Shown: positions 9,129-12,404, numbered from the stretch's first letter. The stretch is DNA of 21,692 nt from a virus (IMGVR_UViG_2562617086_000013); one strand, 5' to 3'. Notes: generated by a model from the letters alone, not told the origin. Program-made: numbers and translations.

Positions 9129-10135
9129 GTGTCTCAACCACTTTCGGAAATATTGACATGGGATGATGAACAATGGGAGGTATTTGTCCATGATTGGCTT
9201 ATTGTCTGTAAATCAGATGATTACCCGTGGAGCGAACGTTTGGGAGGAGCTGGAGATAAAGGTAGAGACGTTGTTGGATATAAATCGGATCCTAACGTAG
9301 AAGGTTATTCTTGGGATAATTATCAATGCAAACTGTACAAAAAAAGTTTAGGGTTCTCTGATGTTGTAGTTGAGTTTGGAAAACTTATCTATTTTACTCT
9401 GAATGGTGATTATCCCATCCCTCAGAAGTACTTTTTTGTGGCACCCTATGATTTATCTACTACATTTTCTAATTTATTGAAAAATAAAAACGAGCTTAAA
9501 AAAGCAGTCCTTGATTCATGGGATTCAGCAATTTCAAAAAAATAACTAAAAAGATTGATATTCCATTAGATGATGAAATAAAAAAATATATTGAGGATTT
9601 TGATTTTAGTATTTTTTACTCTCTACCCTTATCATTGATTTTAAATGATATTGCAAATACACACCTTTATTTTAAGTACTTTAACGAGCTGTATGTCGTG
9701 AGAATCCCTCCAAATGAAATTCCAACATACAATTCAAAAAAAGAGTCTGTATATGTTAATGCACTGCTTCAAGCCTATTCAGAGCATGGAAATAAAACTT
9801 ATAGTTCTTTCTTAGAGCTTGATGATCCATACAGACGACACTTTAATAATAGTAGAAATGATTTTTATTTTGCATCTTCGCTTGAGGTTTTTGTCCGCGA
9901 AGTATTTAAAGATGATGTATTCAAAGCATTGAAATGTTACATTTCATCTTCAATTGAACCCGTCTTTTATGAAGACCATAATTATGCATTTATTAGGTGT
10001 AATGCAGTCTTGAAGCAGGCTGTTCTGACACCAATTGCACATTCAGTACTATCAAAAATATGTGAAGCAAATGATAAAAAAGGAATATGCCATCATTTGG
10101 TTAATGATGGTGAAGTAATTTGGACGGTGAGATAA
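9129..10135 (+). pseudogene. defence-system effector candidate: N-terminal Mrr/Cap4-like PD-(D/E)xK nuclease domain plus C-terminal domain (LmuA-like); apparently frameshifted in an A7 run at 9536-9542
   Basis: GTG start with AAGGAG RBS 3 nt after the int stop; ..ERLGGAGDKGRDVVGY..WDNYQCKLY.. fits the GDxGxD ... QCK restriction-endonuclease motif. Frame 0 stops at 9543-9545, while the same protein continues in the -1 frame (ORF 9518-10135); one extra A would join them. Confidence 0.6.
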
Positions 10136-10593
10136 TGGTTAGAATTTATAATTCAAGTTTAGAAGTGGCATGTCGAATGGCGAAAGTGCTCGTCGCTATT
10201 TATCCTTCTTCATTAAGCCTTGAACGGCTTATTTGTTTTGATTTTATTTTAGTAAATCTTAAGGATTTTTTACCTGAAGAGATTAGTCTTCATCCTCCAA
10301 TACCCCGTAGAGATGCTCAGTTAGCCCTAAAACGAGAGATTGTTTTAGAATCATTGGCTTTGTTGCAAGGCTATGAACTAGCCTCAAAAATTTATACACA
10401 TCGTGGTTTTGTATATAAAGCTTCTGAAAAAACATATGCATTTACAAATTCTCTACATAATGAATATGTTGCGCAGATGGAGCATAATATAAATTTGGTG
10501 GTTAAGTTATATAGTGATATTCCTGATGAGCAGTTGCAATCAATTATAAAAAATAAAATTGGCAAATATGATATGGAATTTAATTATGAATGA
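10135..10593 (+). CDS. small alpha-helical-looking protein (about 152 aa); candidate middle component (LmuC / ABC-3C MC-like)
   Basis: ATG at 10135 overlaps the upstream stop (TAATG); stop overlaps the ATPase start; size and position between nuclease and ATPase. No sequence motif recognised, so the assignment is positional. Confidence 0.45.
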   Translation: MVRIYNSSLEVACRMAKVLVAIYPSSLSLERLICFDFILVNLKDFLPEEISLHPPIPRRDAQLALKREIVLESLALLQGYELASKIYTHRGFVYKASEKTYAFTNSLHNEYVAQMEHNINLVVKLYSDIPDEQLQSIIKNKIGKYDMEFNYE

Positions 10594-12404
10594 CAATTTT
10601 TTTACGTTCAGAAAAATAAAGGTAACCGGATTCAATAAATTAGATGCTATAATTGAATTTGGTTCTAAATTGACTATTTTATATGGTGGTTCTGACTCTG
10701 GAAAAACATACATATATTATTTGATTCGATATTTATTAGGGAGTGAAAAACTAAAAAATAAAGATATCGATCATGCTCAAGGTTATGATTTAGCCTATCT
10801 GGAATTTAATTTTCAAGGTAGGGTAATGACAATTGAGAGGTCTCTTCAGGATAGCGCCCATTACAGATTATATGATTCGAGTATTGAAAATGTTAGTGAA
10901 GCTAATCTGTTGATGGTTTTTTCCAAAAGTGCTTCGTCTAAAAAGAGTTTTTCATCATACTTTTATGGTAGGTTGAATTTCAAAGAGGCTAAAGTAAGAA
11001 CAAACTTAAGTAATACTCTTCATAAATTTAATCTTAATAATGTTTTTGAATTTTTTTGTATTGATGAATTAAGAGTGTTAACTGAGAAGTCGTTAATTCT
11101 TTCTGATATTCCTAGCGAGGAGACAAAAAGAAAGTCTGAATTTAAATTCCTTTTAACTCAGAGAGATGATACTAACTCCTTAGCAGAAAAACCAAATAAA
11201 AAAGCAAGATATTTTTAAAAAAATCAAATTGCAAATATTTATGAGGAATTGAAAGCGCAATTAATTTATCCTGAATATGATCAAGTCATTGTTTCAAGAG
11301 AACTTGAGAAAGTAGAGCAAGATATTGAATCATCGAAAGATATATTGAAAGGTATTGTTGATGCACTTGATGATAAGAAGCAATTATTAAAAGAGTTAAG
11401 TGATGAATTATATTCAATCAGTGACAGGGAAAAATACTTATCATTACTCATTGAAAGATTTAGTCTTCTTAAAGACCAATACTTTATAGATCTACAAAGA
11501 ATAGATGTTGTATCACAGGCGAATTTCTATTTAAATAATTTTGCAGATATTTATTGTGAGTTCTGTAATACACCGCAAAAAAAGAAAATGAAATATCATA
11601 TGATGATTGTTTTTTGTCGTGTAATGCAGAAAAATTGAAAATCAAAAGCCAGCTGAAAGGATTAATTGAATCAATCGGATCTAATGTTCGCGAACATGAA
11701 TTAATTATGTTAAGAAAAAATGATGTTAATGAAATTTATCAATCAGAAAAAAGTGATTTTAAGACGTTAGAAGATAAAAATATAAAACAATACATTCATC
11801 TCTTGAATCACTTTATGAATATAAAGACAATCTTTTAATGGATCACACAAAACATAGCATTCTATCTTCATTACAAGATAAAGAAGATGATGTTGACGAA
11901 CTTAAATACTCCGCCGAGGACTTTGACTCCTTAACAGTAGCTGATTTGTATGATATAGAAATAGCGATGCAAGACTTTTTGAATGATATAAATTTTGAAA
12001 ATTCTAAAGATAACAAAGTGCGATTTGACGAAGATACATATGACTTTAATATCAATGGGAAACGCCGAGGAATGTTTGGTAAAGGTACCCGTGCAGTAAT
12101 GCATGCTATATTTACCATTTGCTTTGCGGAATTTTTATCAAGAAAAGGGAATCCATTCATTGGATTTGTTGTGCTTGATAGTCCATTAGTGACGCACTTT
12201 GATAAAGATAGAGGGGGTTCTCTATCGGATGTTAATAGCGTCAGTCTCAGTGATTCATTTTATCACGCATTAATCAAAAGGGACTATAATTTCCAGATTG
12301 TAATTCTTGAGAATAAAGGTCCGACGTTCCAAATAAAAATTAATGATGCAAATAAAATCCATAACTTAAATAAGAATGGAAGCTCTGGTTTTTATCCTGT
12401 TTAA
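10586..12404 (+). pseudogene. SMC/ABC-type coiled-coil ATPase (LmuB / ABC-3C ATPase-like), about 606 codons, disrupted: in-frame TAA at 11216-11218, -1 frameshift in A7 at 11577-11583, possible second shift at T4 11833-11836
   Basis: N-terminal head FTFRKIKVTGFNKLDAIIEFGSKLTILYGGSDSGKT (Walker A); long charged heptad-like middle; Cys cluster CEFC..(x15)..CFLSC across the frameshift; C-terminal head with ..GKGTRAV.. and Walker B-like IGFVVLDSP. The four track ORFs (10559-11218, 11249-11638, 11614-11838, 11838-12404) are collinear pieces of one gene. Confidence 0.6.

Follow-up and report, generated by a model that had tools for sequence, protein, structure and literature searches.

A fragmented three-gene operon next to the satellite integrase

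The window analysed here is a stretch of 21,692 nucleotides catalogued as viral (IMGVR_UViG_2562617086_000013), the whole of which corresponds to the chromosome of Escherichia coli O157:H7. A preliminary description had placed at positions 9129-12404 an AT-rich cargo module of three genes, encoding a nuclease, a small protein and an SMC-like ATPase, in the int-proximal hotspot of a P4-like satellite. We hold with high confidence that this segment is a pseudogenised lmuA-lmuC-lmuB operon of the short (type II) Lamassu, or ABC-three-component (ABC-3C), family, carried as int-proximal hotspot cargo by a distant P4-like satellite in the O55:H7/O157:H7 lineage. The sub-family is the one in which an Mrr-type nuclease fused to CTD6 (LmuA) is combined with MC2 (LmuC) and a zinc-hook Rad50-like ATPase (LmuB).

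The segment is 100% identical to that of strains TR01, EC4115, TW14359 and others, and a search of 5426 complete E. coli genomes recovers it from 309 at 99% identity or more; wherever the matches listed name a serotype, it is O157:H7 or O55:H7. The proposed layout held up on inspection. The stop codon of the integrase gene int (TAA, 9123-9125) is followed, after a 3-nt gap, by the GTG start of lmuA at 9129, and a Shine-Dalgarno element read from the sequence (AAGGAG, 9116..9121, + strand) lies 7 nt before this GTG, within the 3' end of int. The lmuA/lmuC junction is a TAATG overlap at 10133-10137, and the ATG of lmuB at 10586 falls 8 nt inside lmuC (overlap ATGAATGA). The GC content of the module is 0.309, compared with 0.50-0.52 in the satellite core genes. 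A promoter scan gave matches at chance level (20 found versus 18.3 expected), with none above chance upstream of lmuA, and we claim no promoter; the module is probably co-transcribed with int. A consensus scan picked up, 27 nt past the lmuB stop, a terminator-like hairpin (12431..12464, + strand; stem of 13 bp), which may act as the terminator.

What the segment contains, however, is seven open reading frames (ORFs) and not three genes. Reverting four lesions yields genes of 1008, 459 and 1821 nt, equal in length to intact orthologues and encoding LmuA of 335 aa, LmuC of 152 aa and LmuB of 606 aa. The copy in the window cannot make full-length LmuA or LmuB; at these breaks the preliminary description had only hinted, by calling its proteins 'repaired'. 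Each fragment in the window matches PADLOC Lamassu profiles, in the expected order, and the Pfam and PADLOC searches that had been proposed for the repaired proteins recovered LmuA (8.4e-89), LmuC (2.9e-36), LmuB (2.6e-115), CTD6 and MC2; none of the three proteins has a model in NCBIfam. Because gene order, profile matches and fold matches agree, we assign the operon to type II (short) Lamassu / ABC-3C.

Protein components of the module

The first lmuA fragment (9129..9545, + strand) encodes the Mrr-type PD-(D/E)xK nuclease domain (residues 1-138; PADLOC LmuA PDLC03852, 9e-41, profile positions 10-140) and terminates at a premature TAA at 9543-9545. Its GTG start is kept in intact orthologues. 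The GDKGRD...QCK motif, with D43 at 9255-9257 and Q66-C67-K68 at 9324-9332, is of the D...(E/Q)xK form that goes with the N-terminal Mrr_cat-type domain of Lamassu-Mrr effectors, and G42, D43, G45, D47, Q66 and K68 are invariant across an alignment of 88 LmuA homologues. Pfam Mrr_cat is reached by 24 of the 88 (best 1.6e-6), while the repaired LmuA of the window does not reach it at E<=0.1; for Cap4/DUF4297, CTD7 and MC3, neither the window proteins nor any of the 88 homologues gives a Pfam match. Since the motif residues are invariant, 24 of the 88 reach Mrr_cat and none reaches Cap4/DUF4297, the effector is, judging from its sequence, an Mrr-type PD-(D/E)xK nuclease.

The lmuA gene is split by a -1 frameshift in an A7 run (9536..9542, + strand), at which the intact Proteus and Pantoea-like orthologues are one base longer. 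Addition of a single A to this run gives the 335-aa protein, which matches PADLOC LmuA PDLC03852 in one stretch. The second fragment (9543..10135, + strand, -1 frame) encodes the linker and the CTD6 oligomerisation/docking domain (Pfam CTD6 PF20282, 2.1e-29; PADLOC LmuA positions 141-333, 4e-44), and PGAP annotates it as a separate 205-aa coding sequence (CDS) from ATG 9518, under the name 'ABC-three component system protein'. In the repaired protein CTD6 occupies residues 206-332 (103 bits versus a Pfam gathering score of 26.4), and it is matched by all 88 homologues. The predicted architecture, a PD-(D/E)xK motif followed by a C-terminal domain of roughly 200 aa, therefore stands for the repaired LmuA, that is, an N-terminal effector joined to a C-terminal docking/oligomerisation domain, but in the window a frameshift divides the two and gene 1 is not an ORF. 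The LmuA fold was checked on an AlphaFold2 (AF2) model of an intact orthologue (P0038, 68% identical to LmuA), modelled with a predicted local distance difference test score (pLDDT) of 94.9. Its best PDB matches are solved LmuA chains (probability 0.95-1.00), followed by the PD-(D/E)xK nucleases Cap4, MspJI and FokI.

The small middle gene between lmuA and lmuB, lmuC (10135..10593, + strand), encodes ABC-3C middle component 2, its 152 aa agreeing with the size first estimated. Its product matches Pfam MC2 (PF20288, 5.4e-30, 104.6 bits versus a gathering score of 26.9) and PADLOC LmuC (PDLC03871, 2.9e-36). It has the same length as its intact orthologues and is the sole intact gene of the module in the window.

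The lmuB gene is broken at three sites and survives as four fragments, all on the + strand. The first (10586..11218) covers the N-terminal half of the ABC head (PADLOC LmuB PDLC03863, 1e-49, profile positions 3-199), carries the Walker A sequence GGSDSGKT at 10685-10708 (K40) and terminates at a nonsense TAA at 11216-11218. The ancestral codon is TTA (Leu211): a T occupies position 11217 in O55:H7, O157:H7 LSU61 and the two outgroups introduced below, and L211 is invariant in five aligned LmuB homologues. The second fragment (11219..11583; PADLOC LmuB positions 230-329, 2e-16) encodes the ascending coiled-coil arm and the CxxC zinc hook, whose cysteines C324 (11555-11557) and C327 (11564-11566) show at least 90% conservation across 33 sequences; it ends with a -1 frameshift in an A7 run at 11577-11583. 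The third (11584..11780) encodes the descending arm and ends in an A5 run (11776-11780), the site of a second -1 frameshift, where the outgroups are one base longer at 11775/11776; adding one A to this run restores ...LEDKKYKTIHSSLESLYEYKDNLLMDH..., in agreement with the Proteus protein. A T run at 11833-11836 had been a candidate site for this last break and was ruled out by the alignment with intact orthologues, which puts the deletion in the A run. The fourth fragment (11781..12404, its ORF listed from ATG 11838; PADLOC LmuB positions 428-608, 5e-37) completes the coiled coil and supplies the C-terminal half of the ABC head. It contains the variant Walker B sequence VVLDS, with D532 at 12177-12179 and S533 at 12180-12182; D532, S533 and P534 are near-invariant. 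As VVLDS fits the pattern hhhhD[Q/S/T/E] reported for short Lamassu systems (PMC12663957), it is consistent with this assignment.

Repaired LmuB matches PADLOC LmuB PDLC03863 in a single stretch over profile positions 3-608 of 610. A Walker A head, a long coiled coil and a C-terminal head had been read from the sequence, and all three are there once the gene is repaired, together making up an SMC/Rad50-like LmuB; as it stands, with a nonsense codon and two -1 frameshifts, gene 3 is not an ORF. The Pfam ATPase families AAA_15, SMC_N and AAA_23 all score below their gathering thresholds on LmuB, and a phmmer comparison of the repaired LmuA and LmuB with PDB sequences gave no meaningful match. 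We checked the fold on an AF2 model of the intact Proteus orthologue (P0001, 88% identical to LmuB), which agrees with the predicted Rad50-like head plus coiled coil (pLDDT 86.2): an N-terminal head, an 85-residue helix, a CxxC loop (C324, C327), a 99-residue return helix and a C-terminal head. A Foldseek search with this model ranks solved LmuB chains first among PDB entries (E 2e-14 to 9e-12), with Rad50 and SMC proteins following at weaker scores. These weaker matches would speak for a housekeeping repair ATPase of the RecN/SbcC type, located with its neighbours in a conserved chromosomal context. However, LmuB chains come first, the genes occur in no more than the 309 of 5426 E. coli genomes, and the AT-rich lmuB lies inside a mobile P4-like element, linked to an MC2 gene and a nuclease-CTD6 gene, so that we find a housekeeping origin scarcely credible.

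Shared and lineage-specific lesions in E. coli

We mapped the lesions against other E. coli copies and two outgroups with intact genes, Proteus mirabilis (L005) and a Pantoea-like contig (L007). The window has four: the -1 frameshift in lmuA (A7, 9536-9542) and, in lmuB, the TTA-to-TAA change at 11216-11218 and the -1 frameshifts at 11577-11583 (A7) and 11776-11780 (A5). The lmuA frameshift and the lmuB deletion at 11776-11780 are common to all seven E. coli copies compared, namely the window, TR01, 86-24, LSU61, O55:H7 RM12579 (identical to TB182A), CB9615 and DEC5E. Because these two lesions are shared by all seven, the system appears from the comparison to have been dead already in the common ancestor of O55:H7 and O157:H7.

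The remaining lesions are distributed by lineage. The nonsense codon at 11217 is found in the O157:H7 copies compared other than LSU61, and the 11577-11583 run is A7 only in the window, TR01 and 2017C-4109, being A8 in 86-24, LSU61, O55:H7 and Proteus. O55:H7 has a -1 of its own at 11747-11752, CB9615 has an added T near 11050, LSU61 has an extra A in the 11747-11752 run that leads to a TGA, and 2017C-4109 has a further -1 at 9580. Meanwhile lmuC is open in every copy compared. Such addition of later lesions, lineage by lineage, is as expected under relaxed selection and neutral decay. The A run at 11747-11752 exists in three lengths (A5 in O55:H7, A6 in most O157:H7, A7 in LSU61) and appears to be a hypermutable site. 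The states at 11217, 11577-11583, 11747-11752 and near 11050 could serve as lineage or typing markers.

That all the indels lie in homopolymers, which are error-prone on some sequencing platforms, might suggest that the breaks are sequencing or assembly errors and that the operon is an intact, undescribed Lamassu/ABC-3C variant. Yet the segment recurs in 309 independently assembled complete genomes, all of the ~70 matches listed, EC4115, TW14359 and CB9615 included, are annotated in the same fragmented manner, one of the breaks is a base substitution and not an indel, and the lesions follow lineage in the copies read base by base. Given this recurrence (309 of 5426), the shared annotation among the matches listed and the lineage-consistent lesions in eight further copies, the lesions should be taken as genuine and not as sequencing errors. 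Nor did the suggestion of an undescribed variant fare better: Pfam and PADLOC profiles cover the repaired proteins end to end, PGAP already names 'ABC-three component system protein / middle component 2', and the locus has been published (PMC11754643). We give almost no weight to this combination of sequencing error and novelty.

Intact relatives in the same hotspot

Outside E. coli, intact orthologues (74-88% identity) occupy the same P4-like hotspot in other Enterobacterales. The identity of LmuB is 87.8% with its Proteus counterpart and 75.6% with that of Pantoea, and the ratio of non-synonymous to synonymous substitution rates (dN/dS) of the repaired genes against intact orthologues is ~0.1. 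Since the repaired lengths equal those of the orthologues, dN/dS is ~0.1 and LmuB is so close to its Proteus counterpart, purifying selection appears to have acted on the genes until recent times.

The intact arrangement int-lmuA(335)-lmuC(152)-lmuB(606)-delta-psu, adjoining proBA, is carried by a Pantoea alhagi genome and by two metagenomic contigs; loci with the int-lmuA-lmuC-lmuB-delta-psu layout include L006, L007 and L010. A P4-like element of Citrobacter braakii has the same layout with a more distant version (LmuB identity 44%). The recurrence of this layout in Pantoea-like, metagenomic and Citrobacter elements makes the MC2/CTD6 sub-family of Lamassu a recurrent cargo of the P4-like hotspot. 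Proteus mirabilis (L005 7000-8545) shows the reverse of the decay pattern seen in E. coli, with an intact operon next to an integrase full of stop codons. Phage records yielded only distant LmuB relatives, with 22-37% identity.

How an intact system would work and where this allele would fail

Cryo-electron microscopy of Lamassu systems of the Cap4-CTD7-MC3 type, Salmonella LmuACB and Vibrio cholerae DdmABC, has revealed a mechanism of sequestration and tetramerisation (bioRxiv 10.1101/2025.03.14.643221; PMC12663957; 10.1101/2025.06.23.660979). By analogy, a complex of two LmuB, one LmuC and one LmuA would hold LmuA as an inactive monomer via its C-terminal domain. Binding of DNA ends arising from phage replication, together with ATP-dependent engagement of the LmuB heads, would release LmuA. 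The freed LmuA would tetramerise via its C-terminal domain, pairing nuclease domains into an active site, and would then degrade DNA indiscriminately so that the infection aborts. Because gene order and the overall LmuA and LmuB folds are shared, the MC2/CTD6 sub-family may be expected to follow the same logic.

The allele in the window is predicted to produce LmuA cut after residue 138, with the nuclease parted from CTD6, and LmuB ending at residue 210 (stop at codon 211) with two further frameshifts downstream, hence without coiled coil, hook or C-terminal head. With the nuclease detached from CTD6 and LmuB stopping at residue 210, this allele should be capable of neither sequestration, nor sensing, nor activation.

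The published Lamassu-var allele

Both the family and the locus are already known, given that curated profiles cover the proteins, the locus has been published as Lamassu-var and Lamassu likewise appears in a PADLOC survey of O157:H7 (PMC12050774). The Domainator study (Nucleic Acids Res 2024, PMC11754643) described the commonest cluster of E. coli Psu/integrase-flanked 'P4-like hotspots' as 'related to Lamassu' and named it Lamassu-var; this cluster 1 accounted for 259 of 910 regions, with '3 to 9 CDSs' and a Psu 31% identical to P4 Psu. The region cloned in that study, CP038295:4116517-4120474, is the present locus in O55:H7 TB182A (NZ_CP038295.1): it is 99.7% identical to the window, identical to RM12579, and annotated with the same split proteins as RM12579. 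Compared with the window, the O55:H7 allele is free of the nonsense codon and of the deletion at 11577-11583 and has its own -1 at 11747-11752. The cloned segment has the lmuA GTG as its very first codon, omits everything upstream and runs through the antisense delta gene of the satellite.

In that study, the clone, on a plasmid 'without any promoters', gave smaller plaques of T-even phages at the highest dilutions, and the system was described as active; the plaque-size data were presented without mutant controls (PMC11754643). A term search of the main text of this paper returned no mention of frameshifts or pseudogenes. Because the clone is the frameshifted allele, has no upstream sequence and includes the delta gene, crediting the plaque-size effect to an intact Lamassu seems doubtful.

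The effect can also be read as a sign that a broken allele keeps some low function, either because RNA polymerase or the ribosome slips on the A runs and yields a little full-length product, throttling a toxic system, or because the split pieces (nuclease domain, CTD6, LmuC, half-heads) assemble. Several observations fit: the three indels are all in A runs of 5-8 bases, the run at 11747-11752 comes in lengths of A5, A6 and A7 across the lineage, over-expression of Lamassu is toxic (bioRxiv 10.1101/2025.03.14.643221; PMC12663957), and the allele that gave smaller T-even plaques (PMC11754643) was itself frameshifted. However, full-length LmuB would need two independent slippage events, the TAA at codon 211 of the window lmuB is beyond bypass by slippage, and at least five further independent inactivating lesions across lineages fit relaxed selection and not a maintained switch. 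Moreover, the published clone had no upstream region or promoter, included delta and gave its effect only at the highest dilutions. We therefore regard residual function of either kind as improbable. The narrower proposal, that the A-run frameshifts are slippage-dependent throttles giving traces of full-length LmuA and LmuB and a low level of protection in O55:H7-type alleles, is more improbable still; if true, it would explain the weak T-even phenotype of the frameshifted clone. For the window allele it would additionally demand readthrough of the lmuB TAA, which is very unlikely.

Three points nevertheless weigh against our conclusion that the operon is a dead Lamassu. Taken at face value, the smaller T-even plaques of the O55:H7 clone argue that this allele is not fully inert (PMC11754643). 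The mechanism set out above is carried over from Cap4-CTD7-MC3 systems, with no MC2/CTD6 complex solved or biochemically tested in the literature searched. Finally, nine E. coli copies were inspected base by base, as against the 309 genomes that hold the segment.

With pseudogenisation as the preferred interpretation, what our analysis adds to the published locus is that the compared copies are pseudogenised, together with the order in which the lesions arose. The commonest E. coli 'P4-like hotspot' cluster, as reported in PMC11754643, would be a lineage-fixed pseudogene array, which would inflate Lamassu counts in surveys of O157:H7 defences; the lesions would account for the '3 to 9 CDSs' of Lamassu-var, and in the published test of activity the allele was frameshifted in both lmuA and lmuB. 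Defence pseudogenes have been reported to be rare in P4-like satellites (preprint, bioRxiv 10.64898/2026.02.27.708500). The present locus would be an exception, a dead system retained, and not swapped, since before the O55:H7/O157:H7 split.

The satellite and its surroundings

The module lies between int and the delta/psu side of the element, and the genes that identify a P4-like satellite (delta, psu, sid and the alpha primase) are all supported by Pfam, as the preliminary description of an int-proximal hotspot would have it. In the window the P4-like tyrosine integrase gene is in two parts. The N-terminal part (6580..7150, + strand), with the arm-binding and central domains (Pfam Arm-DNA-bind_3 1e-26, Phage_int_M 2e-24), is collinear with the intact 1182-bp int of TR01 and is truncated by an insertion sequence (IS); the C-terminal catalytic part (8461..9125, + strand; Pfam Phage_integrase 5e-26) extends to the int stop. 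The 1310-bp IS3-family element between them (IS629/IS1203-like, 7151..8460, - strand) is 99.9% identical to an annotated IS1203-family copy in TR01 and carries orfA (8080-8406) and orfB (7193-8083). None of the other copies for which flanking sequence was retrieved (TR01, 86-24, 2017C-4109, O55:H7 RM12579 and TB182A) has this element in int. Because it interrupts the integrase, the satellite is probably locked in place in the window strain.

On the other side, the hotspot is bounded by a block of - strand genes (12814..14392): the P4-like Ogr/Delta gene delta (12814-13086; Pfam Ogr_Delta 1e-16), psu (13092-13643; Pfam Psu 5e-42) and a sid-like gene for a Psu-like Sid (13640-14392; Pfam Psu 7e-10). 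Farther along lies a P4 alpha-type primase-helicase gene (16638..19028, + strand; Pfam Zn_Ribbon_Prim, Toprim_3, D5_N, DUF5906 and Pox_D5). With a Psu that shares only 31.3% identity with that of P4, the satellite is best viewed as a distant relative of P4. A tRNA scan of the window found none.

Three observations concern the surroundings of the module. A second AT-rich patch (GC ~0.30), directly following the alpha primase, holds a 318-aa ORF (19161-20117, - strand) with no match in Pfam or PADLOC, which may be further unknown satellite cargo. Upstream of the satellite, in a lambdoid prophage remnant, a 274-aa ORF (3329-4153, - strand) matches the PADLOC profile of the defence protein PD-T4-3 along its entire length (2.3e-140, positions 1-255 of 256) and also Pfam LEM-3_GIY-YIG; PGAP flags its TR01 equivalent as partial, with the C-terminus missing. 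Finally, 782-2655 is inverted relative to TR01, with tail-fibre and tail-fibre-assembly genes adjoining pinE, and looks like a Pin-invertible segment in the other orientation.

Comparison with known systems

The preliminary description had likened the gene order to Lamassu type II, DdmABC and ABC-3C systems. The first and last of these comparisons are upheld by profiles, order and fold; the match to DdmABC fails at the level of domain families and holds at the level of fold. DdmABC of V. cholerae and LmuACB of Salmonella enterica (Cap4-CTD7-MC3; PDB 9hqu, 9hqx, 9hr5, 9nxx, 9uxh) share the three-gene order, the plan of LmuA (an N-terminal PD-(D/E)xK domain and a helical C-terminal domain) and that of LmuB (a Rad50-like head and a coiled coil), and the S. 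enterica LmuB resembles the present one in its zinc hook and variant Walker B. Their chains are the top Foldseek matches, with a Foldseek sequence identity of only 8-15% and no phmmer match, and their Cap4/DUF4297, CTD7 and MC3 domains contrast with Mrr-type, CTD6 and MC2 here. The likeness is thus one of fold, and the present operon does not belong to the Cap4-CTD7-MC3 group.

Rad50/SbcC proteins are built likewise, with an antiparallel coiled coil that interrupts the ABC head and bears a CxxC hook. Unlike these, the present LmuB has a much shorter coiled coil and a Walker B (VVLDS) that is devoid of the catalytic glutamate; its partners are LmuC and LmuA, not Mre11/SbcD, and it is the cargo of a mobile element.

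Lamassu systems with Mrr effectors, acting by abortive infection, have been described (10.1101/2022.05.11.491447). Lamassu-Mrr as tested from E. coli O150:H5 SE15 (Millman et al. 2022) shares with the present operon the Mrr-type LmuA effector, lmuC and the SMC-like lmuB. A sensitive blastn search with either the module or its Citrobacter relative as query matched E. coli only at the O55:H7/O157:H7 locus, with no intact or divergent copy. The SE15 system has no DNA match to the present operon and would at best be a distant relative, though its proteins may be related.

The ABC-3C systems with MC2 and CTD6 (PF20288 and PF20282; a classification cited as reference 11 in bioRxiv 2025.03.14.643221) share with the present operon the effector / middle / ATPase order and both domains, each of which scores here above its Pfam gathering threshold. 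At the family level we find no difference from this sub-family: the module is one of its members, present in E. coli O157:H7 as a disrupted copy.

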